In this document: piece by piece, positions 2,040 through 63,800 of the stretch | How the letters are laid out: every line of letters begins with the position of its first letter | Position numbering within the stretch: position 1 is the first letter of the stretch | NCBI GenBank assembly: GCA_964554805.1 | Contig: CAZKPX010000001.1 | Location: 381,798 to 445,797, forward strand | DNA length: 64,000 nt | Direction: 5' to 3' | Origin: an uncultured Candidatus Saccharibacteria bacterium | GTDB taxonomy: Bacteria; Patescibacteriota; CAZHWT01 | Notes under the pieces: generated by a model | The model's input: only the letters and a program-made list of their open reading frames with translations | Told to the model about the DNA's origin: nothing | The model's database searches: none | Translations under genes and position numbers: made by a program

Positions 2040-2193
2040 GGGGAAAGGGAAAGGGAAAGGGAAAGGCAAAGGGCAAGGGAAAGGCAAAGGGCAAAGGGCA
2101 AAAGGCAAAAATTAAAGTAGAAAATCAAAATGCCTGCCAATACTTTTGACCTTAAATTTTAATTTTTGCCTTTTGCCCTTTGCCTTTTGATTT
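2040..2193. repeat. Family A palindromic element, copy A2: GGGAAAG/GGCAAAG heptamers, an AT-rich loop, then inverted CTTTGCC arm
   Basis: Read directly; arms are reverse complements (ggcaaaaattaaagt ... ttaatttttgcc). Confidence 0.8.
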
Positions 2194-2256
2194 ATCAGTA
2201 CCTTTTTATGCGATAATAGGGTTAAGATGTGGTGGAGCTATTGTTTATATCAGAGA

Positions 2257-4012
2257 GGTAGACTGCATGTTGTTTAGAGATTTTACGCAGAAACTGGAAA
2301 TTATTGAGCAGACCAGCAAAAGGAATGAATTGGTGGTGCTGTTGTCGGAGTTATTTACTCAGGCGGGTGCTGAGGAGATACAGCAGTTGGTCTATATGTG
2401 TCAGGGGCGGCTGGTGCCGTTTTTTGAGCCGCTGGAGATTGGGATGGGGGAAAGACTGGTGGCGGCGGCGATTGCGCTGGCTGATGGTGGGACTCAGGAG
2501 GCGGTTTTGAAGCGACTGGGGGAGTTGGGGGATATGGGGTTGACGGCGCAAGAGCGACGAGCGACGAGCGACGAGCGACGAGATCTGACTTTGCTGGAGG
2601 TGTATCGGGGGTTGAGGGATATTGCTGAGACGAGCGGGGTGGGGTCGACTGAGGCTAAGATTGGGGGGTTGGCGGAGTTGTTGAAACAGATGGATCCGGT
2701 TAGTGCCAAGCATTTGGCTCGTATTCCGTTGGGGACCTTGCGGTTGGGGATTGGAGATCCGACTATTTTGGATGGATTTTCTTTTGCTAAGGCTGGAGAC
2801 AAGAGTTTGCGGAAGCCGTTGGAGCGAGCATATAACGAAACCAGCGATTTGGGCATGATTGGTAAGGTGCTGTGGGGGGAGGGAATTGAGGGAGTGGATG
2901 GGTTGAGAGTGTCGGTGGGGCGGCCTTTGCGGTCTCAGTTGCCGGAACGTTTGCCGACGCCGATTAAGGTGCTGGAGAAGATGGGGCCGGTGTTAACTCA
3001 GACTAAGTTTGATGGTTTTAGGACTCAAATTCACAAAATCGGTGACAAGGTGGAGATTTTCTCGCGTAATTTGGAAGATATGACGGGGATGTTCCCTGAG
3101 ATAACTGAAGCTGTTAGTAAGTATGTTAAGGCTGAGACAGCTATTTTGGATGGGGAAGCGTTGGCTTTTAATGGAGAGAGTGGGGAATTTTATCCATTTC
3201 AAGAAACCACTAAGCGGCGTCGGAAGCATAATATTGAGGCTGCTGCTGCTGCCTTACCGCTGAAAGCCTTTTTATTTGATCTGCTGTATGTTGATGGTCA
3301 GCCGATGATTGATAAACCGTTGTTGGAACGACTGGACAGACTAAAGGAGGTTGTAGAAGATCCGACAGATACGTTGTTGATTGCTGAGAGTAAGGTTTAT
3401 GATGAGTCTGAGGAGTTGCAGTTGAGGCTGAGTGAGGCGATTACGGCTGGTCTGGAGGGATTGGTGGTTAAGAGGCCTGATTCTGTGTATACGGCGGGAG
3501 CTCGTAACTTTAATTGGGTTAAGTTGAAGCGACACTCGAATGGTGAGCTGCATGACACGATTGATTGTGTGGTATTGGGCTATATTTATGGTCGGGGTAA
3601 GCGGACTTCGTTTGGAGCGGGGGCGTTGTTGGTGGGGATTTATGATGCTGAGGCGGATGAGTTTAAGAGTGTTAGCAAGATAGGGACTGGTTTGAGTGAT
3701 ATTGAGTGGCAGGAGATTCGTGAGCGTTGCGACAAGATTACTTCTGAAGTTAAGCCGGCTCGGATTGATTCGCAGATTACTCCTTCGGTGTGGGTGGAGC
3801 CTGAGGTGGTAATTGAGGTATTGGCTGATGAGATTACTCGATCGCCGATGCATACGGCTGGCAAGGATGGAACTGAGCCTGGTTATGCCTTGAGATTTCC
3901 TCGATTGGTGAGTTTTAGGGATGACGACAAGCAAGCTGAGGATGCCACGACGGTAGAGGAATTAAAGAAGATGTATACTCAACAGGTAATTGATTCTGGG
4001 TCCATTGCTTGA
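2257..4012 (+). CDS. lig: ATP-dependent DNA ligase of the Lig1-like type with an N-terminal DNA-binding domain
   Basis: Adenylation motif I KFDGFR (KxDGxR), EGLVVK motif and WVKLK motif V; the track ORF starts at 2180 inside the repeat, so the likely start is the ATG at 2257 (MLFRDFTQKLE). Confidence 0.85.
2552..2583 (+). repeat. (GCGACGA)x4 heptamer microsatellite inside the ligase coding sequence
   Basis: agagcgacgagcgacgagcgacgagcgacgag read directly; 28 nt, so it is frame-neutral only as a set of three units; encodes ERRATSDERRD. Confidence 0.85.
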
Positions 4013-4870: not shown

Positions 4871-5269
4871 GGGTGGATTGGGGTGTTGACATGGGAGGTG
4901 ATTTGGGTTATTATCCAGAAGCTTGTTTAACGGCAATGTCTCTGTTAGCCGATCCGGTTAGTTGGGGATTATCCAAAAGCAAGTTTGATTGCGACAATTC
5001 TGTATAAAACTTTGGTTATATATAAGAAGTCGCAGTTTTTCATTAGTAGGTCTTTGTTTAGCTGGTGCTAACTCAGAGAGTGAAGTCCTTTTACAACAAC
5101 ATAACGACAGGAATGCAAGCAAATCTGACGTAATCTAAACGTTCAGATGCATTTCTGAACATGAAATTACGTCAATTTCAAGAGTTAATTACTCCTAAAT
5201 TTAATTTAGGACATGAAACTTCCGATTATTCATGTAACCTTTCGAGGTTTATGGATAACGTACACATTT

Positions 5270-6750
<1,481 letters not shown>

Positions 6751-8038
6751 AAGGAGAAATCTATGTGATTTTCATATCACATGGCAGCTGCATTAACCCC
6801 TCTCACGCGGGGGCAGCATGGTCAACTACTACGTTTTAAGTAATTAGAATATGTAGAACGTTTAAGGTGAAAATCTTAAACTATGGTCTCTAAATTCACC
6901 ATACTCCAAAGAATTTAGGCCACTTCCTGTCGTTATGTTGTTGATAAAGGTTCAATAACAGCCCGTTTGACTCTGTCAGCGGGCTGTGTTGTTGTTATCG
7001 TTGGCTGATTTGAGAATTCAGAGCCTTGTAGGGCTGGTGGTAGCTCGATACGTATGGGCGGTTAATTGTTTGGGCAGTCGGTTAAGGGTAGGCAAGAGGG
7101 TTTGTGCATTGTATTGAATAACCAGGCTACTTGTCGATTATTCAAATGGACTGCATGCTGGGTGATTTCTAAAAACTGTTAATGAATTGAGTTTACTTTC
7201 GTTGTATTTATCAGTTGATAATCAAATCTAGACTCTTGCTATCCCTTTTGATCAATATATTTATACATATAGCGGCTGTGTTAGTATTTCCTTATTGCAG
7301 ATCACTTTTGAGGCTAATACTATTCCTTGTTATTTTATATTAAACACTTATTTGTATATTATTTTTAGTTTATTGTGCTAATTCTTTCTATTTTACTCTT
7401 TGCTGATAGTATATTCTAATGTTATCATGTAACATCTATGATTACTTGATTTTTGTATTATTTAAAATATACTAGTTATTTGTAATCTATAGGGTATGCT
7501 GTTCTTTGTATTGTTGAATATTCTATAGACAATTTTATATCCTGTAATGATTGATACTCTATATATCATTTCTATTATTCTAGACTAATTTCAATAAGTT
7601 CTTAATATTGTTCTATTAGATATATTTGTTTATTTATCGTATTTCGTCTATGATTGCTAGATATTTATCTCTGTATGTTTTCTAATGTGCTGTCTAGCTC
7701 TATTTATTATATGTAAACTCAGAATGATATTTATCAATAATTAGCTTTTATTGAGTAATGCATCGGATATCTTTTGTATCATATTTTGATATTCTATAGT
7801 TTGTTGTTATTGTAACATTATAATGGCTTTAGTATCTTTATCAGTATAATTATATTTTTAATGTTTTAATATTTTGATTGTTTGATCGACTGGCATGATG
7901 TTGTAGAATTGTGTTTAAAGTGACTGTTGCTAGAGAAGATAGATTCTGGTATAGTACGCCATGTCTTTAGGCTTTAGATGACCATCTATTGTTACGCATG
8001 GCGTGTGTTTGATACATATTAAGTAACAGTTACATAGT

Positions 8039-8112
8039 GGCCTCTTGGCCGAGTAGTTAGGCAGCGGTCTGCAAAACCGCGTACAGCGGTGCAAATCCGC
8101 TAGAGGCCTCCA
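8039..8112 (+). tRNA. tRNA-Cys (anticodon GCA), 74 nt with encoded CCA
   Basis: Cloverleaf folded by hand: acceptor ggcctct/agaggcc, anticodon stem gcggt/accgc, loop ctGCAaa, T-arm agcgg-tgcaaat-ccgct, discriminator U73 as expected for Cys. Confidence 0.75.
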
Positions 8113-8311
8113 AAAAATTTGCAGAGCAAATTTTTGAAGTGACGAGTACGAGCGACGAGCACAAAACAATATGATCTAAATAGAATAGTTGCTCAGCTGC
8201 ATAGGTCATGACAATGACCGGTAAATAATAATAAACGAGCGCTTGCGCTCTGGCCAGCAGAGTAGCGGCTTCATTGATAGTTAGTGGTAGCAGTTGAATA
8301 TATCCTTTCGA

Positions 8312-8388
8312 GGGCGATTAGCTCAGCTGGTTAGAGCGCAGATCTGATAAGTCTGAGGTCCATGGTTCGAGTCCATGATCGCCCACCA
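8312..8388 (+). tRNA. tRNA-Ile (anticodon GAT)
   Basis: gggcgattagctcagctggttagagcgcag-atctGATaagtct...ggttcgagtcc...atcgcccacca; typical rRNA-spacer tRNA. Confidence 0.9.
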
Positions 8389-8557
8389 TTTAAGATTTAT
8401 GATTAGTTGCCGTACGTAGTTAATTGTCAGAGCAATGCAATATATAGTCATTTGTTTGATATGGAAGCCATTTTGAGGCTTGACATAGGGGTAGCGAGGT
8501 GTTATATTTGGTTTCGCGTTAGTTGAGCCTTGCACTCCAGATAATTTAATACTATTT

Positions 8558-8633
8558 GGGGCTGTAGCTCAGTTGGTAGAGCGCCACATTTGCAATGTGG
8601 ATGTCTGGAGTTCGAATCTCCACAGCTCCACCA
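8558..8633 (+). tRNA. tRNA-Ala (anticodon TGC)
   Basis: ggggctgtagctcagttggtagagcgcc...ttTGCaa...ggttcgaatcc...cagctccacca; G3:U70 alanine identity pair present. Confidence 0.9.
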
Positions 8634-8952
8634 GAAAAATTGCCTGGCAATTTTTAGTGAAAAGAGAACAGTAGAAGTGAGAAGTTTAGAAGCGAGAAGT
8701 TTGTTCAGCGTTGGATTGGTTTCGTTAGCCCACCCTAACGGAACCTATCTAGGTCTGAATAAGACTTAGCCGATTCAATGCTTTTAGCTGCGGATTGAGT
8801 ACTTTAACAACCGAAAAACAGATTAAATTTGATTTCTATATTTACGAGCCGTAAATATAGAACCAACGTCTTTTTGTTCTTGGTGTAATCGCGAGATTAC
8901 GCTGGGAAACAATGTAGGAAAACGTCAAATAAATCGATCATCTTAGTAAAAC

Positions 8953-12025
<3,073 letters not shown>

Positions 12026-12198
12026 TTGAGTTTTTCTGTCAATTTATTGATAGAAAACGCTAAGGTGATCAAGAATTTGATTTCTTCTCACTAAGAATAT
12101 TGACGTCGTGTATATCAAATTTAGTGTCTCGCACTCGCGTGACCGCTTCTGTTTTTCGGTTGTTAGGGTATTCACCCTAAGAAATGCTTTGACAATAA

Positions 12199-12321
12199 TG
12201 TCTTGGTGATTGATAGCGCTGGTGTCCCACCTCTTCCCATGCCGAACAGAGTCGTGAAAGCTGGCAGCGCCGATGATACTTGGATCGCAAGGCCCTGGGA
12301 AAATAGGTCATCGCCAGGACA
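12199..12321 (+). rRNA. rrf: 5S ribosomal RNA
   Basis: gtcttggtgattgatagcgctggtgtcccacctcttcccatgccgaacagagtcgtgaaagctggcagcgccgatgatacttgg...catcgccaggac matches the 5S consensus; the two ends pair. Confidence 0.85.
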
Positions 12322-13897: not shown

Positions 13898-15094
13898 ATG
13901 GGCTGTGTGGCTGTGGTTGGGTTGCAGTATGGGGATGAGGGTAAGGGTAAGATTGTTGATTATCTGGCGGCTGGGTGTGAGGTGGTGGTGAGGGGGAATG
14001 GTGGGGCCAATGCGGGGCATACGATTGTGCTGGAGGATGGGCAGGCTTTGGCTTTGCATCAGATACCGTCGGGGATTAGTCACGACAAGACTTTGAATAT
14101 TATTGGTAATGGTTGTTTTGTGGATATTGTGAAGCTGGTGGGCGAGATGGAGGCTGCTGGTCAGGTTGGCTTGGATGTATCGCCAGACAGGTTAAAGATT
14201 AGCCGGACAGCTCACCTGGTGCTGCCGATTCATAAACAGAGGGATGCGGAGCGAGAAGGTGGAGACAAAGGGCAGGGTAGCACTAAGGCAGGGATTGCTT
14301 TTGTGGCGGCAGATAAGGCCATGCGAGAAGGGGTGAGGGTGGAAATTTTGGAGCAATGGAGCAGGGATGAATTGGTAGCTTTGGGCGGGCAGGAGTTTGC
14401 TGAGGCAGCAGAGCAGTTGAAGGCGTATGTGTGCGACAGTGTGAGCTTGATTCAGGGCTTGCTGGCGGAAGGGAAGAAGGTGTTGCTGGAGGGGGCTCAG
14501 GCTTTTGGTTTGGATATTAACCATGGCAAGTATCCGTATACGACTTCGTCTGATACGACGGTGGCTGGGTTGATGAGTGGGACGGGGGTTAATTATAAGC
14601 AAATAGATCGGGTGGTGGGAGTGGCCAAGGCTACGCCATCGAAGGTGGGCGGAGGAGTGTTTGTGACGGCTATTACTGAGACGGCGGTGGCGGAGCGGAC
14701 TCGGGGTCAGAAGGGGGCGGTAGATGCTGAGTATGGGGCTACTACTGGTCGAGAGCGAGAGGTGGGCTATCTGGATTTGGTGGCCTTGAGGCGAGCGGTG
14801 CTGGTCAATGGTGTTGATGAGCTGGCTTTGACCAAGTTTGACTGCTTGATTCGCCACGGAGTCACGACTAGGGTGGCGGTGGCCTATGAGGTGGATGGGC
14901 TGAGGGTGACTGATCCGCCGGCTTCTAATAGTGATTTGGCTCGATGTCAGGCGGTTTATGAGGAACTGCCTACCTGGGAGGATGAAGATTCAGTTGAGGC
15001 TAAGGCTTATATTCAGCTGGTGGAGGATTATGTGGGGGTGCCGGTGACGATGATTGGCAATGGGCCGGAGCGGGAGCAGTTGATAGTTCGGTAG
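13898..15094 (+). CDS. purA: adenylosuccinate synthetase
   Basis: N-terminal VVGLQYGDEGKGKIVDYLA (GDEGKGK P-loop) and GNGGANAGHT motif. Confidence 0.85.
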   Translation: MGCVAVVGLQYGDEGKGKIVDYLAAGCEVVVRGNGGANAGHTIVLEDGQALALHQIPSGISHDKTLNIIGNGCFVDIVKLVGEMEAAGQVGLDVSPDRLKISRTAHLVLPIHKQRDAEREGGDKGQGSTKAGIAFVAADKAMREGVRVEILEQWSRDELVALGGQEFAEAAEQLKAYVCDSVSLIQGLLAEGKKVLLEGAQAFGLDINHGKYPYTTSSDTTVAGLMSGTGVNYKQIDRVVGVAKATPSKVGGGVFVTAITETAVAERTRGQKGAVDAEYGATTGREREVGYLDLVALRRAVLVNGVDELALTKFDCLIRHGVTTRVAVAYEVDGLRVTDPPASNSDLARCQAVYEELPTWEDEDSVEAKAYIQLVEDYVGVPVTMIGNGPEREQLIVR

Positions 15095-18151: not shown

Positions 18152-19231
18152 ATGGCAGAAACAGCTGCAAAAGAAAAGACAAGCGAAGCTATGACTATGG
18201 AGGAATTGTTGGCCAACGAAAAGCCAATTGTTCAACTACAGCGAGGCGATGTTGTCGAAGGAACCGTTATCGAAAAGATGGGTGGTGAAATTTTGGTTGA
18301 TGTGGGAGCCAAGTCCGAAGGAGTTGTGCCTTCTAGTGAAGTTCGTGAAGAAAAGGAAATGGCTGAAACTCTTAAGACAGGCGACGCTTTGTTGGTATAT
18401 ATCGTATCGACAGAGAATGAGCATGGCCAGGTTCAATTGTCATTGAAGAAGGCAGCTATTGCCCGTAAGTGGATTGCTTTGAAGAAAGCAGCTGAGGATG
18501 ACGAAGTGTTGACCGTTAAGGTTTTGGAATACAACAAGGGTGGTTTGATTGTTGATTACCAGCGTATTCGTGGATTCATTCCATTCTCTCATCTGGTATC
18601 CGGTCCGGCTCGAACTGCTACTCCTCAGGAAGTAACTGATGAGCTGAATGCCTTGGTCGGTCGCGAGTTGTCGGCTATGATCATTGAGGCTGAGCAGAAG
18701 ACAAATCGGTTGATTTTGTCTGAAAAGAAAGCTCGTCAGGATGCTGAGCGTGAAAAGAAGGCTAGTTTGATGGTTAACTATCGCCTTGGTCAGGTGGTTG
18801 AGGGTAGCATTACTCGTATTATGCCTTTTGGCCTGTTGGTAGATATTGGTGGCCTTGATGCGCTGGTTCACGCCACTGAAGTTAGCTGGGATAAGTCTTC
18901 CGACTTTACCACTAAGTATCAGTTGGGTCAGAAGATCGAAGTTAAGGTTATTGAGCTCGATGAAGCTAATGGCAAGGTTAACTTGTCTATTAAGCAATTG
19001 TCTCAAGACCCATGGGAAGATCGTTCCGGCAAGATAAAGACCGGCGACAAGGTTAAAGGTTCTGTGACTAAGATTACCTCTTACGGTATTATCTTGGATA
19101 TTGATGGTATTGAGGGTCTATTGAAGACCGATCAGGCTGACATTAAGACTGGCGATAGCGTTGAAGTCTTCGTAACTGAAGTTGACGCTACATCTCGTCG
19201 ATTGAACGTGTCTAGCGAGAAACCTGAATAA
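18152..19231 (+). CDS. rpsA: 30S ribosomal protein S1, short form with four S1 domains
   Basis: Repeated S1 (OB-fold) domains: [62 protein letters not shown]; start taken at MAETAAKEK. Confidence 0.8.
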
Positions 19232-46028: not shown

Positions 46029-47069
46029 TTGATATCTTTACCAGGTTTTTCAAAACGTAAGTTCACCGTTAAGCGATTGGCAATTGACTTGGGCACAGCC
46101 AACACTCTGATGTATTTGGAAGGAGTGGGGGTAGTGTTGAATGAGCCGACTGTGGTCGCTTTGTCGGCTGAAGACGGCAAAATAATGGCAATTGGAGCTG
46201 AGGCCAGAGACATGCTGGGTCGAACACCTCAAGATATTGTAGCCTCTCGACCATTGAAGGAAGGGGTGGTGGCGGACTACGAGAGAACCGAGTCAATGAT
46301 TCGCTATTTTATGAAGAAGATAATGGATGAACATCACTTGAGTAAAGTGGAGGTTCTGGCTTGTGTGCCGTCCGGCGCAACTAGTATTGAGCGTCGGGCA
46401 GTCTTGGAAGCTGTGCTTGCTGCCGGAGCCAAGAATGCGTATCTTCTTGAAGAATCGGTAGCCGCCGCAATTGGGGCCAATGTGCCGATAGGAAGCACTG
46501 AAGGAAATATGATTGTTGATCTGGGTGGTGGGACCACAGAAATTGCAGTAATCTGCTTGGGCGGAATTGTGGTCCATGACACGGTCCGGGTGGGTGGTTA
46601 TCATATGGATGAGGCTATTAACTCATTTATTCGTCGAAAGCATAATTTGCTGGTGGGGGAGCGGATGGCTGAAGAGGTTAAATTGCAGTTGGCCGCTGCT
46701 TTGGCTAACAAGCAGAATGATGCGACTTTTGAGGTTAAGGGTCGAAACACGATAGATGGTCTGCCAAATGCAATCACAGTGTCCAGTGATGACATTTTTG
46801 AGTCTATTCGACCACTGCTTGAACAAATTATTACCAGTATAAAGAATGTTCTTGAACAAACGCCTCCGGAATTGGCAAGTGATATTATAGATAGAGGTAT
46901 TGTCCTTTCGGGTGGCGGAGCAGCCTTGCCGTACTTTGATCGACTTATCAGTGTCAAGACTGGTGTGCCAGTTCACGTAGCGGATGAGCCATTATTGTGC
47001 GTGGTTAAGGGGGCCGGCAAAGTGGTTGATCAATTTGCGACGTTTGCTAAGCATCTTAGAAAATATTAG
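46029..47069 (+). CDS. mreB: rod-shape determining protein MreB (actin homolog)
   Basis: AIDLGTANTLMY, EPTVVAL and DLGGGTTEIAV; TTG start as in the track. Confidence 0.9.
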   Translation: MISLPGFSKRKFTVKRLAIDLGTANTLMYLEGVGVVLNEPTVVALSAEDGKIMAIGAEARDMLGRTPQDIVASRPLKEGVVADYERTESMIRYFMKKIMDEHHLSKVEVLACVPSGATSIERRAVLEAVLAAGAKNAYLLEESVAAAIGANVPIGSTEGNMIVDLGGGTTEIAVICLGGIVVHDTVRVGGYHMDEAINSFIRRKHNLLVGERMAEEVKLQLAAALANKQNDATFEVKGRNTIDGLPNAITVSSDDIFESIRPLLEQIITSIKNVLEQTPPELASDIIDRGIVLSGGGAALPYFDRLISVKTGVPVHVADEPLLCVVKGAGKVVDQFATFAKHLRKY

Positions 47070-47070
47070 A

Positions 47071-47178
47071 AATCAAAGGTAAAAAGGCAAAGGGCAAAAA
47101 TTAAAGTGTAAAATCAAAGATAGTATGCATTCCTTTTTACTTTTAACTTTAATTTTTGCCCTTTGCCTTTCGACTTAT
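47071..47178. repeat. Family A palindromic element, copy A3 (short form: arms back to back)
   Basis: aaaggcaaagggcaaaaattaaagtgtaaaatcaaag ... cttttaacttttaatttttgccctttgccttt. Confidence 0.85.
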
Positions 47179-47195
47179 GATTTTGGAGTTCCCCT

Positions 47196-48305
47196 ATGAT
47201 TATTGGATATGACGGTTCTCGGATAAGTGTCGCTCAGCGGACTGGTACCGAGCAGTATTCTTACTTGTTGTTAGAGCAACTGATTAAACTGCCTGGGGAT
47301 GATATATTTCGTGTTTACACGCGGGAGAAGATTGAAGATCCAATCTTTGAGCATCCAAGAGTAGAGCAGCGCGTGATCGGTTGGAAGCGGCTGTGGACTC
47401 AAGGTGGGCTGGCGCTTGAACTATGGAAGAGTCGTCCGGATGTGCTATTTATACCGGCTCACACCTTGCCAGCCTTGAGACCTTTTGGGATAAACAGCGT
47501 GGTGACTATTCATGATCTGGGTTATGAGTACTTGCCGCAGTACCATCAATTCCCCCATAAGCTTTACCTTAATAAATCAACTGAGTATGCAGCATGGCAG
47601 GCCGGTCGTTTAATCGCGGTGTCTGAGTTTACTAAGCTTGATTTGCACAAGAAACTAGGGGCGTCGGTAGATAAGATTCGGGTTGTTTATGAGGGGGTGG
47701 ATACGCAGCGATTTGCCAGAGTTTCTGAAAAGGATGAGCAAGCGGCTCGGCAGAAGTATGGTTTAGCCAAGGATTATATTTTATTTGTGGGAACGGTTCA
47801 GCCTCGTAAAAATTTGGTCAGGCTGATTGAAGCTTTTTCCTGTCTAAAAGATAAAGATATAGAGCTGGTGATTGCCGGCGGCAAGGGGTGGATGAGTGAT
47901 GATATCTATGCTGCGCCTACTCGCTATGGCGTTGAGGAGCGAGTTAAGTTTTTGGGGTATATTGACGAGGAAGACAAGCCGGGCCTGTATGCGGCTGCTA
48001 GAGTGACGGCTTTGGTGTCGTTGTTTGAAGGGTTTGGATTGCCGGCTATAGAATCAATGGCTAGCGGAACACCGGTTGTGGCAGCTAATAATTCGTCATT
48101 ACCCGAAGTAGTCGGCGAGGCTGGTATCTTGGTCGAGGCTGAATCGGTGGATAGTATTCGCCAAGGCTTGCAGACTGCTGCTAGCGATGAGTCTGTGAGG
48201 CAGCGTTTGATTAAGAATGGTTATGAGCAGGCTGGCAAATTCCGCTGGGATCGTGCTGCTGAAGAGACGATGGCTGTTTTTAAAGAATTGGTGGGTGAGG
48301 AGTAG
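47196..48305 (+). CDS. GT4 glycosyltransferase (glycosyl transferases group 1)
   Basis: EGFGLPAIESMASGTPVVAANNSSLPEVVG, a GT4 E-x7-E-type C-terminal domain. Confidence 0.8.
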   Translation: MIIGYDGSRISVAQRTGTEQYSYLLLEQLIKLPGDDIFRVYTREKIEDPIFEHPRVEQRVIGWKRLWTQGGLALELWKSRPDVLFIPAHTLPALRPFGINSVVTIHDLGYEYLPQYHQFPHKLYLNKSTEYAAWQAGRLIAVSEFTKLDLHKKLGASVDKIRVVYEGVDTQRFARVSEKDEQAARQKYGLAKDYILFVGTVQPRKNLVRLIEAFSCLKDKDIELVIAGGKGWMSDDIYAAPTRYGVEERVKFLGYIDEEDKPGLYAAARVTALVSLFEGFGLPAIESMASGTPVVAANNSSLPEVVGEAGILVEAESVDSIRQGLQTAASDESVRQRLIKNGYEQAGKFRWDRAAEETMAVFKELVGEE

Positions 48306-50948: not shown

Positions 50949-51082
50949 GGACAAATCTAGCTACAGGGACTCTAGCATTATCATAGCTCTGTATGGAGTG
51001 TTTAAAATCTGGTGCTGGCTCGTCGCACTGACTAGAAGGAAGCGAGTGACAGGCAAGCGTTATGTGTGTAGAATTGGATTGT

Positions 51083-52495
51083 ATGAAGATTTTGTTTGTG
51101 GCTTCTGAGGTTACTCCTCTTATTAAATCTGGCGGTTTGGCTGATGTTGTGGGCGGCTTGCCGTTGGCATTGGCAAAACAAGGACACGATGTGCGAGTGG
51201 CGATTCCGGCTTATCACGGCATCGATAAGGAGCAGCTTGGTGTACGATTGGTGGCTGAGAATGATTTTCAGGCGGGGAATCAGGCAGTCTCTAGTAAGGT
51301 GTTTGAAGGCTCATTGGCTGGATCGGTGGGGCTGTATTTGGTTGAGTTTGAGCCAGGCTTGGCCCGGCCAGCCTTGTATCCTAGAGTAGAAGATGGTGAT
51401 CAAGATAGATTTGTCATATTTGGATTGACAGTTTTGGAATGGCTGAGGGAGTCGCAGTGGCAGCCGCATTTAATACACGGCCATGACTGGATGACTGGCT
51501 CGTTGATGGCTGAAATAAAACACAGACGCTTGCCGTACGGGACGGTTTTAACAGTCCATAATGGTGCTTATCAGGGGTTGGTAGCTGGAAGCATATGTCA
51601 GTCGCTAGGCCTGGACTATGATCAAGACGAGTCAGGCATGGTTAATCTTCTGCAGGTGGGTTTGGAGCAGGTTGATCGAATAACAACGGTTAGCCAGACG
51701 TACGCTAGGGAGCTGATTGAGTTGGGTGGAGGGCATGGTCTTGAGGCAACGTATAGAAGTAGGCAGGTCGATACAGTTGGGATTATCAATGGTATCGATA
51801 GCGAGCGCTTTAATCCTTGGCATAATCCGTATGTTCAGCCTGGATATAATGCACGGACTGTCGACAAAGCGAAGCAGCAGCATAAGCATTTGCTTCAGAT
51901 TGAGTTTGGATTGCCAGCCAAGCGCGATTTGCCTTTGTTTGGTATGGTAGGCAGAGCTACTCCTGACAAAGGGTTTGATTTAATTGCTGAGGTGATCTCA
52001 TCCACGCCTTTGCTGGAGCAGGCTCAGGTGGTAATTCTGGCATCGCCTGAGGTTGAAACGGTGGAAAAGGATTTGAAGCATCTGGTTAAAAAGTATCCTC
52101 AGAACTTGCACATCTCGGTTGGCTTTGATGAAGCTATGGCTCATCGGATGTATGCGGCGTGTGATTTTTTTATTATGCCGTCTCGGCGAGAGCCTTGCGG
52201 CCTGGTTCAGCTGATTGCCATGAAGTATGGGGCAATACCGATTGTTCATAAAACCGGGGGGCTGGCTGATACGGTGGTTGATATTCGAGATGGCGATAAA
52301 GGCACAGGTATCGTTTTTAGTGATTATGCAGCGCAAGGTTTGGGGAATGCTCTGGGAAGATCAATGGGTCTATATTACGATCACTTGAGGATGCCTGGTA
52401 TGGTTAAAAGAGTGATGAAGCAGGATTGGTCTTGGGATAGGACAGTAGGGGAATATGAAGCGGTGTATGAGTCTTTGGTGAGAAAAGAGGAGTAG
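51083..52495 (+). CDS. glgA: GT5 glycogen/starch synthase family protein, paralog 2
   Basis: IKSGGLADVV KxGGL motif; 470 aa; in tandem with paralog 1. Confidence 0.75.
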   Translation: MKILFVASEVTPLIKSGGLADVVGGLPLALAKQGHDVRVAIPAYHGIDKEQLGVRLVAENDFQAGNQAVSSKVFEGSLAGSVGLYLVEFEPGLARPALYPRVEDGDQDRFVIFGLTVLEWLRESQWQPHLIHGHDWMTGSLMAEIKHRRLPYGTVLTVHNGAYQGLVAGSICQSLGLDYDQDESGMVNLLQVGLEQVDRITTVSQTYARELIELGGGHGLEATYRSRQVDTVGIINGIDSERFNPWHNPYVQPGYNARTVDKAKQQHKHLLQIEFGLPAKRDLPLFGMVGRATPDKGFDLIAEVISSTPLLEQAQVVILASPEVETVEKDLKHLVKKYPQNLHISVGFDEAMAHRMYAACDFFIMPSRREPCGLVQLIAMKYGAIPIVHKTGGLADTVVDIRDGDKGTGIVFSDYAAQGLGNALGRSMGLYYDHLRMPGMVKRVMKQDWSWDRTVGEYEAVYESLVRKEE

Positions 52496-52958
52496 GGCAA
52501 AAAAGGCAAAAGGCAAAGGGCAAAAAAGGCAAAGGGCAAAGGGCAAAGGGCAAAAATTAAAGTTAAAAATATAAAGTGGTGGAATTGTCTTTTGTCTCTT
52601 GAATTTTGATATATAACCTCGGGATTCATTTGTTTCACATCAAGTGCTGGTCTCTGAATCCCCGCAGCCGAGTTGGCTGCATCAATTGCAGGGGGGGGGT
52701 GTCATTATGTTTGTCCTGGATTGCCACTCCGCCAGTCGGCGGCTCGCAATGACATGGGGGAGGTGTCGCTATGTTTGTCCTGGATTGCCGCTCCGCCAGC
52801 TGGCGGATCGCAATGACATGAGGGGGGGGTGATAGTTGGATTGGGCGTGCGGAGTTTATCCTGATCCAATCGGGGCTCGCCATGACGGCGAGGATTGTAA
52901 GTAATCTTTGATTTTTAACTTTAATTTTTGCCCTTTGCCCTTTACCTTTTGACTTACT
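52496..52958. mobile_element. Family A element, long form: Family A terminal inverted repeats flanking a 330-bp cargo
   Basis: Left arm ggcaaagggcaaagggcaaaaattaaagttaaaaatataaag (52496-52575); right arm ctttgatttttaactttaatttttgccctttgcc (52908-52958); the arms are reverse complements and match copies A1-A3. Confidence 0.7.
52701..52895 (+). repeat. tandem 65-nt units (two intact, one degenerate), each a hairpin-containing module ending in a G-run
   Basis: Unit gtcattatgtttgtcctggattgccactccgccagtcggcggctcgcaatgacatggggg repeats at 52701-52764 and 52765-52830; ccgccag-nn-ggcgg hairpin; G-runs of 9 at 52691-52699 and 8 at 52822-52829. Confidence 0.75.
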
Positions 52959-53076
52959 ATGAAGATATTCATCCGCAAGATCTTTGTGGTATCCGTATCA
53001 TTAAGATAGCCAAAGTCATACATAGATATCTTATGATATAGTTTATTTTCTATAAATATGCTGTCATACTTATGTT

Positions 53077-54036
53077 ATGGAAATACGACTAGATCCGGTG
53101 ACTGGACAACCTGTTTTGTTGGCGACTGAGCGCAGCAAGAGACCTCACTTTGGGAAATCTAAAATTGGTTTGCGGCCGAAGTTGGATAAGCATAGACTGC
53201 AGGATGGAGCTTTGAAAAAGGTTAATCCGTTTGCTCCCGGCAATGAAGAAATCACTGGCTCAGAGGTGTATTCGGTTAGCGATAATCCAAGACATTTGCC
53301 TAATCAGTCGGATTGGAAGATACGGGTCATACCTAATAAATACCCGATCGGCAAGCATCATGAAGTAATCATCCACAGTCCTTCGTCGAACCTAGATTTG
53401 GATAGGTTGAGCATGAAGCAGGTCGAGCGTTTAGTGGGGACGTACGTCATTAGGTCTAAATTTTTATCAGATAAGGGCCAAGTGTTTTTGTTTTGTAATC
53501 ACGGAGATGAGGCGGGTGCGTCTATTGATCACCCTCATAGCCAGATCTTGGCTTTGCCTACGCTGCCACCGGCTATTTTGGCAAAAGTGGAGGCGGTTAA
53601 GAACTACTATGACCAAGAGGGACAATGTCTGTATTGTCAGCTCATTGAGAGGGAGCTGGAAATAGGGCGGCGAGTGGTATGGCAAAATGATGATTTTGTG
53701 TTGATGTGCCCTGAAGCTTCTGGTTGGCCGTATCAACTACAATTATTGCCTAAAATTCACCAATCGCATTTGGTTTCAGTAAATAAAGCTGGGCAGCAGT
53801 CGTCGCTGGCAGAAGCTTTGAGGGTGATGGTTAGGCTTTATAATCGGGTGCTGGATAAGCCTTCGTATAATTTTTGGTTCAATACAGTTAAAGGGCAGTT
53901 TTTTCACTGGCATATTGATATGGTGCCTCGGGCTAAGGTGTTGGCTGGGTTAGAGCTAGGAGCGGGCTTGATGGTCAATGATCGTCTTAGTCCTGAGGAG
54001 GCAGCCAAGGTATTTCGACTTAGTCTAAACGCTTAG
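53077..54036 (+). CDS. galT: galactose-1-phosphate uridylyltransferase (GalT) family nucleotidyltransferase
   Basis: N-terminal DPVTGQPVLLATERSKRPH and active-site HPHSQI (H-x-H-x-Q); CLYCQ zinc site. Confidence 0.7.
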   Translation: MEIRLDPVTGQPVLLATERSKRPHFGKSKIGLRPKLDKHRLQDGALKKVNPFAPGNEEITGSEVYSVSDNPRHLPNQSDWKIRVIPNKYPIGKHHEVIIHSPSSNLDLDRLSMKQVERLVGTYVIRSKFLSDKGQVFLFCNHGDEAGASIDHPHSQILALPTLPPAILAKVEAVKNYYDQEGQCLYCQLIERELEIGRRVVWQNDDFVLMCPEASGWPYQLQLLPKIHQSHLVSVNKAGQQSSLAEALRVMVRLYNRVLDKPSYNFWFNTVKGQFFHWHIDMVPRAKVLAGLELGAGLMVNDRLSPEEAAKVFRLSLNA

Positions 54037-54500: not shown

Positions 54501-54577
54501 GCAGTCCTGGGTGCTATTTTTTAAGAATTTGAGGCCCCGTTGGAAATAAATTCATAAAAAATAGCATCCAGGACTGC
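54501..54577. promoter_or_regulatory. 21-bp imperfect inverted repeat with a 32-nt spacer
   Basis: gcagtcctgggtgctatttttt ... aaaaaatagcatccaggactgc; sits between the helix-turn-helix gene and the giant gene. Confidence 0.4.
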
Positions 54578-54605: not shown

Positions 54606-54614
54606 GGGGGGGGG
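54606..54614. repeat. poly-G tract of 9 G, 280 bp upstream of the giant-gene start
   Basis: atgttgggggggggtaagag read directly. Confidence 0.8.
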
Positions 54615-60800: not shown

Positions 60801-63800
60801 GCAGTGGCTAATACTGGCACTAACAGGGTGATGACATCGTCAGATGGTGAGACTTGGACAGCTTATCCAGCAGCTGATCAAAGCTATTGGATTTCTGTGG
60901 CTTATGGCAACGGTACGTTTGTAGCGGTTGCCTATCTTGGCAGTGGTAGTCGGGTTATGACTAGCCCTGATGGTGAGACCTGGACGGCTCAGGCAGCGGC
61001 TCAGGCTAATAGCTGGCAATCTGTAACTTATGGCAATGGCCAGTTTGTAGCAGTAGCTAGTTCGGGCACCAACCGGGTTATGACTAGCCCTGATGGTGAG
61101 ACCTGGACGGCTCAGACAGCGGCCGAGGCTAATTATTGGTACTCTGTGACCTACGGTAATGGTCAATTTGTAGCAGTAGCGGGTATTGGTGCTAACCGTG
61201 TTATGACAAGTCCCGATGGCATCACCTGGACGGCTCAGGCAGCCGCTGAGGCTAATTTCTGGAGGGATATTACCTATGGCAGTGGCCAATTTGTAGCGGT
61301 ATCTACTGATGGCACTAACCGTGTTATGACTAGTCCCGATGGCGCAACCTGGACTGCTCGGGTAGCCGCTGAAGCTAATGGATGGGGCAGCGTCACCTAC
61401 GGCAACGGCCAGTTTGTGGCGGTGGCTGATAGCGGCGCCAACCGCGTTATGACCAGTCCAGATGGTGAAACTTGGACAGCCAGGGCTGCAGCTGAGTCTA
61501 ATAGCTGGATTTCGGTTACCTATGGCAATGACAAGTTTGTAGCCGTGGCTGCTAGTGGCACCAACAGAGTTATGACTAGCGTCAATGTCGGACTATCTGA
61601 GGCCTTGTTGGTTAGTGGCGATACTGCTTTGCTAGGTGATTTACGTCTTAGCTCTCTGGCTAGTGGGTCGAGTGGTCTTTTGACGATTGATCATGCCGGA
61701 CTGGTGTCAAGCACCTCAGTATCTAGCTCTATGGAGGATTGTTTGAGGGGAGGGGGTGTGCTGCAGTGGGCTCCTTGCAAGGCGGAGCCTGGACAAGTAT
61801 GGGTAGTCTCTGAATCGGCTGAGAATAATAATTGGGGATCAATTGCTTATGGTAACGGTGTGTTTGTGGCAACCTCCTATAACGGTAGCAATACTGCTAT
61901 GTACAGTCTTGATGGCAAGGTTTGGCATGCGGCGGATACTCATGGGGCTTACTCTTGGAACTCAGTCACCTACGGCAATGGTCAATTCGTAGTGGTTGGT
62001 GAGAGTGACTATGACCAGGGTGAAGTCATGACCAGTCCAGACGGCATAAATTGGACTCTTCGATCTGGTGTTGAGGATAGTTTGTGGTATTCGGTTACTT
62101 ACGGCAACGGCCAGTTCGTGGCAGTGGCTTATGCTGGAGACGATCGAGTCATGACTTCGCCAGATGGTGAGACTTGGACAGCCCAATCCGCGGCTACGCA
62201 AAGTGACTGGAATTCGGTGGTGCATGGTGGTGGAAAATTTGTAGCTGTTTCATGGAGTGGTCAGGTTATGACTAGCCCAGACGGTGCGACCTGGACAACT
62301 CAATCTGCCGCCGAAGCGAATAGCTGGCAATCGGTTACTTACGGCAACGGCCAGTTTGTGGCAGTGGCTGCTAGTGGCACCAACCGTGTTATGACCTCAC
62401 CTGACGGCGAGATTTGGACAGCCCGATCTGCAGCCGAACAAAATAATTGGGGATCAGTAACGTATGGCAATGGAGTATTTGTAGCAGTTTCTGGATCTGG
62501 TACTCATCAAGTCATGACCTCGCCCGATGGTATCTCTTGGAAGCCTCAGATGGCAGCTGCAAGTAGTAGCTGGGCCGCAGTGACGTATGGTGGCGGTCGT
62601 TTTGTAGCAGTAGCTTGGAGTGGCGGTAGTAGGGTCATGACCTCGACGGTTGATAATTACGATAAGTCATTCTTTGGTACGACAACGATTGGCGATATTG
62701 GTGGGAATGATGGGTTGGTGGTGAATGGGAAGACTACTTTGACATCCCAGGAGACGGTGAATAAGGGGGGTGAGTGGGTGGCTCGGACTGCAGCTGGGTC
62801 CCATCCATGGCAGTCAATTGCCTATGGTAATGGTCAGTTTGTGGCGGTAGCAAGTAGTGGCGCAGTCCGGGTTATGACTTCACCTGACGGTATTACCTGG
62901 GCCGCTAGAACTGCGGCCGAGGCTAATCAATGGGTATCTGTGTCTTACGGAGGCGGTATGTATGTAGCTGTATCCAATACAGGCACAAACCGGGTTATGA
63001 CCTCACCTGACGGCATAACCTGGACTGCTCGAACTGCAGCTGAGCTCAATCTATGGAAGTCAATTGCCTATGGTAATGGTCAGTTTGTGGCAGTGGCCAG
63101 TTTTGGTACTAATAGGGTTATGACTTCACCTGACGGTATTACCTGGACTGCTCGTGCCGCCGCTGAGGCTAATAACTGGAATTCTGTGACCTATGGCAAT
63201 GGGATGTTTGTAGCCGTGGCAGAATTTGGCACCAACCGAGTTATGACCTCACCTGACGGCATAACCTGGACTGCTCGAACTGCAGCTGAGGCGAATAATT
63301 GGTATGCGGTTGCCTATGGCAATGGCCAGTTTGTCGCAGTAGCTTATGACGGTGCCAACCGTGTTATGACTAGCCCCGATGGCATCACCTGGACTGCTCG
63401 TGCCGCAGCTGAGGCTAATAGCTGGCGGTCGGTTACCTATGGCAATGGTCAGTTTGTGGCTGTAGCTAGTTTTGGCACTAATCGGGTCATGACCTCTCCT
63501 GATGGTGAGACTTGGACAGCCAGAGCTGCAGTTGAGGCTAATAGCTGGAGGTCGGTTACCTATGGCAATGGTCAGTTTGTGGCGGTGGCTGATAGCGGCA
63601 CCAACCGGGTTATGACCAGCGGTGATGTTGGTTTGGGTCAGGCCCTCAGGGTTCAGGGAGATTTTGCTTTAGCTGGTGATCTGCGGTTGAGCAGTCTGGA
63701 GGGGGGAGCTGGCGGACTGTTGTCAGTTGATCATGCTGGATTGGTTAAGTCGGTTCCTCATGGTAATAGTGGTGAATGTTTGAGATCCGGAGGGTCTGCG

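Follow-up and report, generated by a model that had tools for sequence, protein, structure and literature searches.

The closest described relatives of the repeat treated here come from Neisseria. The dRS3 repeat is the core of an oriented element, NTS (CGTCATTCCCGCGMAVGCGGGAATCYRG), and about half of the dRS3 copies belong to this longer form (Chenal et al., Nat Commun 2025, PMC11893778). NTS, with the frame CGTCATT...AATCYRG, is bound and cut as single-stranded DNA (ssDNA) by SsnA, a 94-residue single-domain GIY-YIG protein (cd10448) that is inactive on double-stranded DNA, on RNA and on the reverse strand. The three bases GTC upstream of the palindrome govern cutting, and the C just after the palindrome governs binding. 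Thousands of Ssn homologs occur in many phyla and are flanked by related hairpins, the Ssn-related motifs (SRMs); the hairpin-ssn-hairpin arrangement looks like an insertion sequence and, by the authors' own analogy, recalls repetitive extragenic palindromic (REP) elements and their REP-associated tyrosine transposases (RAYTs) (PMC11893778). The present study concerns a 463-bp block at positions 52496-52958 of a 64,000-nucleotide stretch (the window; GenBank GCA_964554805.1, contig CAZKPX010000001.1, positions 381,798 to 445,797) from an uncultured Candidatus Saccharibacteria bacterium of the candidate phyla radiation (CPR). The block is non-coding, most likely selfish repeat DNA, and separates a glgA-like from a galT-like gene, which both belong to the plus strand. 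The reading we favour, and consider probable, is that of nested repeats, with ATTGC hairpins of the dRS3/NTS/SRM superfamily placed inside a local palindrome called Family A, and not that of an RNA gene.

The block had been described in a first-pass annotation as the long form of a local palindrome family with tandem hairpin units as cargo, and this description was borne out. The following features were located in its interior.

52577-52690, no strand assigned: interior leader without detectable relative, with two local hairpins (fold; unit comparison; blastn).
52691-52699, plus strand: G9 run; on the minus strand, the C9 that closes the 3' end of the array after the tail of unit 1.
52700-52763, minus strand: tandem unit 1 (Tandem Repeats Finder, TRF; minus-strand reading; comparison with canonical pairs).
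52718-52753, minus strand: SRM-like hairpin core of unit 1, ATTGC subtype (covariance model R1, 37.0 bits, E 4.2e-10).
52756-52763, plus strand: G-run GGGGGAGG (G5AGG; run listing).
52764-52829, minus strand: tandem unit 2, ending in G8 at 52822-52829 (TRF; minus-strand reading).
52782-52817, minus strand: SRM-like hairpin core of unit 2 (R1, 38.9 bits, E 9e-11).
52830-52905, minus strand: decayed unit 3 (20/22 identity to unit 1; R1 does not detect it).

A tandem repeat with a period of 64, 2.1 copies, 88% matches and a score of 210 was found by TRF at 52692-52825. The earlier count of two intact units and one degenerate unit was confirmed; the unit length had been given as 65 nt. A closing stem, gtcatt...aatgac, had been assigned to every unit; GTCATT...AATGAC was found intact in unit 1 only, and unit 2 has GTCGCT. 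The poly-G runs of 5-9 G were recovered as described (G9, G5AGG and G8). The units have a GC content of 62.6%, against 45.9% for the window. On the plus strand, the 36-nt core follows the plan GGATTGCC-N-C-TCCGCC..GGCGG-N-TCGCAATGAC, and in unit 2 the inner stem, TCCGCCAG/CTGGCGGA, is perfectly palindromic. The minus-strand reading of unit 1 is CCTCCCCCA-tGTCATT-GCGAGCCGCCGACTGGCGGAGTGGC-AATCCAGG-ACAAACATAATGACA. The identity between unit 3 and unit 1 lies at 52865-52886 (CCAATCGGGGCTCGCCATGAC, matching CCAGTCGGCGGCTCGCAATGAC of unit 1), and none of 500 shuffles scored as high. In unit 3, GGATTGG (52838-52844) and CTCGCCATGAC (52876-52886) are preserved, each with a substitution relative to the conserved frame; a local hairpin new to this unit, CTCGCC/GGCGAG, lies at 52876-52892. 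The leader contains the hairpins GGGATTCA (52621-52628) with TGAATCCC (52655-52662) and GCAGCC (52664-52669) with GGCTGC (52675-52680); no blastn match to it was found in 3.3 Mb of collected loci or in the rest of the window. A fourth unit in the left 113 nt of the interior (52578-52690) was considered and rejected, the similarity being not significant (p = 0.05-0.2). On the minus strand, no recognisable hairpin was seen beyond the C9 at 52691-52699.

The units are not without relatives. Their cores were found to belong to an enormous dispersed repeat family of the form GGATTGC-(variable GC hairpin)-TCGCAATGAC. The pattern GGATTGCY-N10-30-TCGCAATGAC occurred in at least 120 viral contigs, with 174 matches among those listed, often in inverted pairs or in tandem arrays, with as many as 11 copies within 13 kb; the motif had no occurrence in 0.84 Mb of unrelated, mostly AT-rich genome DNA. 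A 24-base pattern including the window-specific GTCC prefix was found in 27 JGI metagenome contigs ranging from 36 to 71% GC. A copy from a bog metagenome (65%-GC contig) was identical to unit 1 at 39 of 42 positions (93%). Canonical copies were also seen in annotated records, namely a Novosphingobium resinovorum chromid (with copies in at least 40 places), Methylosinus, Methylocystis, Halomonas and the cyanobacterium Aulosira, and no annotation was present on the copies in these records. The settings of the family comprise phage contigs, soil and bog metagenomes, alphaproteobacterial chromids, a cyanobacterial plasmid and a CPR relative. Literature searches with repeat DNA strings and with peptides encoded by the repeat returned primers only, or nothing. 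The ATTGC subtype is very widespread and unannotated, and it is missed by the published SRM motif and by Rfam.

Covariance model R1 was built from 88 foreign copies, the window sequence being excluded. Applied to the window it gave two significant matches, which were the two unit cores (38.9 and 37.0 bits), and the next best match had 11.8 bits. Both cores show the conserved GGATTGC...TCGCAATGAC frame, the outer 5-bp stem, the asymmetric internal loop and the inner GC stem-loop. The block could in principle be a local accident, produced by simple repeat expansion or by mis-assembly through the palindrome arms and with no family behind it, and units 1 and 2, which are 88% identical, are clearly a local tandem duplication. 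Detection of the core at E ~1e-10 by a model trained elsewhere, together with the 93% identity to the copy in the 65%-GC bog contig, speaks against such an origin, which we consider very improbable.

The fold common to the family consists of an unpaired GG, an outer stem ATTGC/GCAAT, a 3-nt/2-nt internal loop (YNC/TC), an inner GC-rich stem-loop of any sequence, and GAC. The 36-nt cores of the window fold into this structure at -13.8 and -16.3 kcal/mol, and as hairpins they fall within the 20-50 nt of SRMs. Interiors were distinct in 150 of 158 copies, and a perfect stem of at least 5 bp was found in 43% of the interiors compared to 2.8% of shuffles. In the alignment of the 88 foreign copies, all seven inner-stem pairs change on both sides. 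Paired cells made up 89% of the inner helix and 94% of the whole structure, compared to 29-46% with partners slid, although the paired percentage is somewhat biased as the aligned copies were selected for a folded outer stem. The outer stem itself is uninformative, because its sequence was fixed by the search pattern. Only 5 of ~540 cells were G-U pairs. This scarcity of G-U pairs, combined with the two-sided changes, is the signature of a DNA palindrome and is unusual for an RNA structure.

The first-pass annotation had proposed a structured non-coding RNA carried on a mobile element, with a covariation analysis and a search of relatives for further unit copies as checks. Covariation was present in all seven inner pairs, and it was not of the RNA type; further copies were found, including a canonical ATTGC pair in a CPR relative, described below. 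Several observations are nevertheless what would be expected of tandem structured small RNAs, or of a cis-regulatory RNA, in a miniature mobile element. The region folds well (z = -6.0 for the plus strand, -8.0 for the minus strand), the hairpin covaries strongly, the block is probably transcribed, in sense between two co-directional genes, and some phage copies lie just upstream of ribosome-binding sites. The z-score, however, comes mostly from the 45-bp arms, G-U pairs are nearly absent, and a crude count of orientation relative to genes (27 sense, 24 antisense) gave no clear preference. No promoter or terminator consensus was found in the block. A comparison with Rfam 15 gave no matches at E values up to 10 over 51500-54000, as the earlier statement that the unit resembles no known RNA family had implied, and no Rfam model covers typical family members in five copy-rich loci. 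In the characterised relatives the active form is ssDNA, and binding does not extend to RNA (PMC11893778). An RNA element is consequently held to be quite improbable.

A G-quadruplex-prone regulatory module had also been suggested, on account of the three runs of 5-9 G on the coding strand. A quadruplex of the canonical type (four G3+ tracts with short loops) cannot form within the molecule: no motif of G3+ tracts with loops of up to 12 nt was found inside 52496-52958, where the G-runs are ~60 nt apart. Flanks that are G-rich on the plus strand are family-wide and occur in unrelated contexts. We give this suggestion next to no credence. Over the window as a whole, all 13 motifs of this type (G3+, loops up to 12 nt) belong to the plus strand, as do nearly all large open reading frames (ORFs).

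The copies have a defined orientation. Among neighbouring copies, 38 pairs consisted of a reverse-complement copy followed by a copy (less than 40 nt apart), 21 were same-strand tandems and 2 had the reverse arrangement. The canonical full element is the inverted pair GTCATTGCGAG..GCAATCCAG - ~18 nt - CTGGATTGC..CTCGCAATGAC. The window units do not form this pair. They keep the right half with GTCATT (unit 1) or GTCGCT (unit 2), and are same-strand tandems, the minority architecture (21 vs 38). The left half has probably been lost, the GTCATT at 52701-52706 being what remains of it, and the "closing stem" of the earlier description is probably a remnant of the outer stem of the full pair. On the minus strand, the window units read tGTCATT-GCGA(G/T)CCGCC..GGCGGAG(T/C)GGC-AATCCAGG, with GTCATT and AATCCAG in common with NTS. 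The oriented, non-palindromic flanks, tGTCATT...GGCAATCCAGG, are present in both units. A pyrimidine precedes GTCATT in 90% of the family copies, the position being C in NTS and H in the SRM pattern. C-runs were found on the minus strand 3 nt upstream of GTCATT in unit 1 (CCTCCCCC) and 4 nt upstream in unit 2 (C8), which would place them where cutting by Ssn takes place. An equally widespread sister pattern, GGATTCCCGC-N3-15-GCGGGAATGAC, occurred in at least 120 viral contigs, compared to an estimated ~0.2 expected by chance, and is the Neisseria dRS3 repeat.

Ssn-encoding loci were examined for the same features (36 viral and 9 annotated plasmid loci). Their products gave Pfam GIY-YIG matches at E 1e-14; for one of them, identity with the N. 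gonorrhoeae homolog was 67%. Each ssn gene has two hairpins beside it, a same-strand one ~35-45 nt upstream and an opposite-strand one ~24 nt downstream, and the frame GTCA(T/C)(T/C)-stem-loop-stem-(A/G)(A/G)TCC is common to all of these hairpins. Their stems are clade-specific, for instance CCCGCG, CCCGGG, CTGAG in Planktothrix and CCCGAGG in Spirosoma. In Azospirillum and Planktothrix, the ssn-flanking inverted pairs are joined by CCAG...CTGG, the same junction as in ATTGC pairs. ATTGC pairs and ssn were found together on two contigs, ~2 kb apart and not adjacent. On Planktothrix agardhii plasmid p1 (record positions 18847-19131), the Ssn-type GIY-YIG gene is flanked by arrays of GTCATTCTGAG hairpin pairs and lies inside a defence island, with an MmeI-type restriction-modification gene on one side and the DISARM helicase gene drmA on the other.

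A number of results weigh against placing the units fully in this superfamily, or against an Ssn-type enzyme as their partner. The published SRM pattern, HGTCWYN(0-2)YYVSBRHN(0-5)WNVSBRGN(0-2)RNCYNB, had no match on either strand of the window, and as a control it did match the NTS consensus; the units are therefore not SRMs by the operational definition of its authors. The pattern fails because the two-tier stem is too long and starts with GC instead of YY. The activity of N. meningitidis SsnA was lost when the palindrome sequence of NTS was replaced and its structure kept (PMC11893778), so that a free inner stem would need a different mode of recognition. An ATTGC hairpin directly flanked none of the 45 ssn genes, and no Ssn homolog was detected in the window, either by phmmer or with a hidden Markov model of 27 Ssn proteins at E values up to 10. 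Two combined ATTGC-ssn patterns had no match in viral contigs, which counts for little as the design recovers 3 of 36 known cases. No nuclease or transposase was enriched among the Pfam families of 148 ORFs next to ATTGC copies, among which phage structural genes were seen. Finally, the window contains a single ATTGC locus of 2-3 copies, and the family is therefore not abundant in this part of the genome. Within the retrieved stretches, ssn occurred at two each of the 120 ATTGC and the 120 dRS3-type loci, and at none of 115 random loci. A Bacteroidota-type Ssn consensus, used as a probe, gave 3 loci only.

Part of this evidence would be accounted for if the ATTGC hairpins were REP-like palindromes, or palindromes like those of miniature inverted-repeat transposable elements (MITEs), that serve another enzyme, such as a RAYT/IS200-type HUH protein, an IS110-type recombinase or some other nuclease, the likeness to Ssn targets being convergent or very distant. 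The ssn loci without flanking ATTGC hairpins and the failing SRM pattern fit this explanation. So do the freely varying inner stem, unlike the sequence-specific NTS palindrome, and the abundance of the family in Clostridia-like phage contigs (11 copies in one of them), where no ssn was found. It has to explain, however, why an oriented frame of ~14 nt is identical to NTS (GTCATT, AATCCAG), including the non-palindromic GTC and C, and why the pair design is the same as that of the ssn-flanking hairpins. No transposase family was enriched in the 148 neighbouring ORFs, and Y1_Tnp was absent from the 25 most frequent of their 81 Pfam families. REP elements reportedly begin with a GTAG-type head; the head found here is GTCATT. 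An enzyme unrelated to Ssn is therefore judged unlikely, and membership of the dRS3/NTS/SRM superfamily is retained as the preferred reading.

By analogy with NTS, an Ssn-type enzyme would recognise the ATTGC subtype, and one would be present in this genome. On the minus strand, each copy reads Y-GTC-ATTGC-(GAG)-(free GC stem-loop)-(GYG)-GCAAT-CCAG. Folded as an ssDNA hairpin with a GTC head and a C tail, it would be bound by a GIY-YIG nuclease of ~95 residues (Ssn), which would cut a few nt upstream, here in the poly-C tract (poly-G on the plus strand). The family would spread in the manner of REP elements and the bacterial interspersed mosaic elements (BIMEs) built from them. A strong hairpin in the 3' untranslated or intercistronic region might affect the glgA2/galT mRNA; any such effect would be a by-product.

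The outer element and the neighbouring genes are as follows.

51062-52495, plus strand: upstream gene, a glgA-like gene for glycogen/starch synthase and the latter of a tandem pair (NCBIfam TIGR02095, E 8.6e-130; Pfam Glyco_transf_5).
52494-52556, plus strand: heptamer array GGCAAAA/GGGCAAA, ~8 copies, the outer part of the left Family A arm (TRF period 7, 7.6 copies; period 23, 96% matches).
52526-52576, plus strand: left Family A arm, GGGCAAAAATTAAAGTTAAAAAT core and AAAG (inverted repeat I1; core copies in the window).
52906-52958, plus strand: right Family A arm, with 3-4 heptamers (inverted repeat I1; a Logan contig begins at 52914).
52959-53076, plus strand: native glgA2-galT spacer and galT upstream region (motif tagtttatttctgtataaa common with the 88-nt spacer of a syntenic relative).
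53077-54036, plus strand: downstream gene, galT-like hexose-1-phosphate uridylyltransferase (NCBIfam NF008724, E 1.1e-31; Pfam GalP_UDP_transf).
2040-2206, plus strand: short-form Family A copy with a loop of ~13 nt, beginning at the stop codon of ORF 978-2039 (arms detected at 2068-2206).
47067-47183, plus strand: short-form Family A copy with a loop of ~16 nt, filling the entire spacer between ORFs 46029-47069 and 47196-48305 (arms detected at 47070-47183).

The TAG stop of glgA2 directly adjoins the repeat block. The Family A arms (52526-52570 and 52911-52955) are 45 nt each, 93% complementary and 340 nt apart, and extra pairs AAAG/CTTT (52573-52576 with 52906-52909) leave an interior of 329 nt (52577-52905), in agreement with the 330 bp given earlier. 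The usual Family A loop had been put at 30-60 nt; between detected arms the loops of the short forms are 13-16 nt. Both short-form copies are plain hairpins starting right at a stop codon. In each arm, a heptamer array (GGCAAAA/GGGCAAA) leads into an AT-rich core, GGCAAAAATTAAAGTTAAAAAT; when up to 3 mismatches are allowed, the window holds five copies of this core and 100 shuffles hold none. Family A is a lineage-specific intergenic palindrome, composed of a heptamer array and an AT-rich inverted repeat, with a normal loop of 13-16 nt. Neither direct repeats flanking the arms at the block (target-site duplication) nor a related transposase were seen. A scan of other genomes with the Family A core GGCAAAAATTAAAGTNNAAA gave 115 single chance matches in AT-rich genomes and no true copy. 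At one of the chance matches, in a metagenome-assembled Paceibacterota genome, a Family-A-like AT-rich hairpin was noticed (GGCAAAAGTTAAAAGGCAAAAATTAAAGT ... ACTTTAAATTTTAAACTTTCACTTTTGACTTTTGACTT, contig positions ~3600-3760). Intergenic 7-nt tandem arrays of many kinds are found elsewhere in the window, at 200, 850, 2552, 4709, 4795, 15183, 50921 and 52501, with the heptamers GAGAAGA, GGCAAAG, GAGCGAC, TATCCGA, TATCCCA, CCTGAAG, GCGACGG and AAAAGGC. They recall the short tandemly repeated repetitive (STRR) sequences of cyanobacteria, yet sit in a CPR genome.

Two independent short-read assemblies (Logan) agree with the window at every position up to 52554 and again from 52914 (100% identity), and the outer junctions of the block are real because both assemblies reproduce them. 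Both assemblies break within the arms, two contigs stopping at 52554 and a third beginning at 52914, and the inner junctions, where the arms meet the interior, are seen only in the source assembly. To that extent mis-assembly, raised above as part of a local accident, finds some room; a mis-join could, however, alter the place or orientation of the interior, not its nature.

The nearest named relatives of the LeuS encoded in the window are from Candidatus Daviesbacteria and other Patescibacteria, at 55-57% identity, which makes the host a CPR bacterium from a lineage that has been sampled poorly. A syntenic CPR relative (L240, GCA_964597145.1), with a glgA2 product 44% identical, keeps the order GT4, WecG, glgA, glgA, galT, MerR. 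Its glgA2-galT spacer is 88 nt long, free of repeats, and has a short motif in common with window positions 52959-53076. The whole 463-bp block is therefore extra in the window, that is, an insertion. The canonical ATTGC inverted pair of L240 lies at 14476-14544, between rplK and nusG (R1, 32.8 bits), and shows that the family circulates in the lineage. A second hairpin of another stem type, CCCGGATCAAGTCCGGGATGACA, is present in the L240 region 14388-14544, where a 62-residue ORF is called across both hairpins. A closer CPR relative (L271, LeuS 74% identical) has a 46-nt palindrome of a different kind, CACCAAAGGTCTGGTGGCGAT/ATCGCCGGCAGACCTTTGGTG, in the obg-leuS spacer, with three copies at 8857-8906, 9584-9629 and 9745-9790. 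The original glgA2-galT spacer would have been ~90-120 nt long, with two nested repeat elements inserted into it. In the simplest history, a Family A palindrome would have lain in the spacer, an ATTGC element would have landed in or next to its loop, and tandem duplication and decay would have followed.

Other known arrangements were considered for the block and rejected. There are no spacers of the CRISPR type, and the 64-nt units are head to tail; a ToxI-like array of a type III toxin-antitoxin system was discarded, as the neighbours are glgA and galT. Integron attC sites were discarded because the copies are in tandem without cassettes between them, and an intrinsic terminator because there is no T-run. 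The repeat gives rise to two spurious ORFs, at 52635-52883 on the minus strand (82 residues) and 52644-52832 on the plus strand (62 residues), with peptides such as LDCHSASRRLAMT and CHCEPPTGGVAIQ. Neither had a Pfam or NCBIfam match, and an exact look-up in public assemblies gave no called gene on record.

Elsewhere in the window, a hairpin with a 30-bp stem, 93% complementary, lies at 54501-54577 just after the MerR-like gene and is followed by a G9 run (54606-54614), the same G9-then-T pattern as in the interior of the block. The rRNA operon at 5269-12319 has a 16S-23S spacer of ~2.2 kb with three tRNA genes (8039, 8312 and 8558). Its 23S match spans 3078 nt compared to a model of 2925 nt, which suggests an insertion of ~150 nt, possibly near a tandem repeat or hairpin at 9592-9660. 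Two arrays of 123-nt (41-codon) repeats, at 60951-61580 and 62781-63617, with 5-7 copies each and 72-77% identity, probably encode a repeat protein.

For this genome the block is of little importance. It is repeat DNA in a spacer, and the ideas of a new RNA and of a G-quadruplex switch are not worth pursuing. As a wider pointer, a hairpin repeat with the frame of Ssn targets is extremely widespread and has been overlooked by the published motif, by Rfam and by genome annotation. The repeat also generates spurious small ORFs and breaks short-read assemblies. More tentatively, and with considerable doubt, the ATTGC hairpins could form a large, unannotated class of sites for Ssn-type or other ssDNA nucleases, in which recognition is confined to the outer frame GTC-ATTGC ... 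GCAAT-C and the inner stem can vary freely. If so, the mode of recognition would differ from that of the sequence-specific NTS, such systems would extend to CPR bacteria, Clostridia-like phages and soil lineages, out of sight of the published SRM search, and the C-run 3-4 nt upstream would be a preferred cut site. Should an Ssn clade or another enzyme read the ATTGC hairpin, the free inner stem would show which bases are needed, which is relevant to ssDNA tools.

The locus can be compared with several known systems. In Family A, the terminal inverted repeats of 45 nt, the 3-4 copies per 64 kb and the existence of short and long forms resemble MITEs and long intergenic palindromes such as Correia and Nezha, and the heptamer arrays at the ends resemble cyanobacterial STRR arrays; unlike MITEs, the short forms consist of nothing but a hairpin and take up the entire intercistronic spacer. 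With REP elements, BIMEs and RAYTs, the ATTGC hairpins have in common that they are short, GC-rich intergenic palindromes, clustered in mosaic arrays and, on the model above, read as ssDNA hairpins. The ATTGC frame is common across phyla, whereas REP elements are species-specific. Neisseria RS units are said to be 50-150 bp long. As in dRS3 and the neisserial intergenic mosaic elements (NIMEs), the window has an intergenic array of short units, each bounded by the same small palindrome; it differs in having only 2-3 units, placed within another palindrome, and in the consensus, ATTGC...GCAAT with 26 nt between compared to ATTCCC-N8-GGGAAT for dRS3. Differences from SRMs and NTS are the two-tier stem (ATTGC/GCAAT, a 3-nt/2-nt loop and a freely varying GC stem), the length of 36 nt compared to ~25-28 nt, the CPR host, and the lack of a cognate ssn in the window or flanked by the ATTGC subtype. 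The similarities are an oriented hairpin of 20-50 nt whose stem has ATT...AAT at its base, with GTC as the head three bases ahead of the palindrome and C (CCAG) straight after it, intergenic, dispersed and clustered copies, complementarity of the DNA type, and the occurrence of both inverted pairs and tandem arrays. Judged from the sequence, the units look like a variant related to SRMs rather than proven SRMs, and like one more stem variant of the superfamily.

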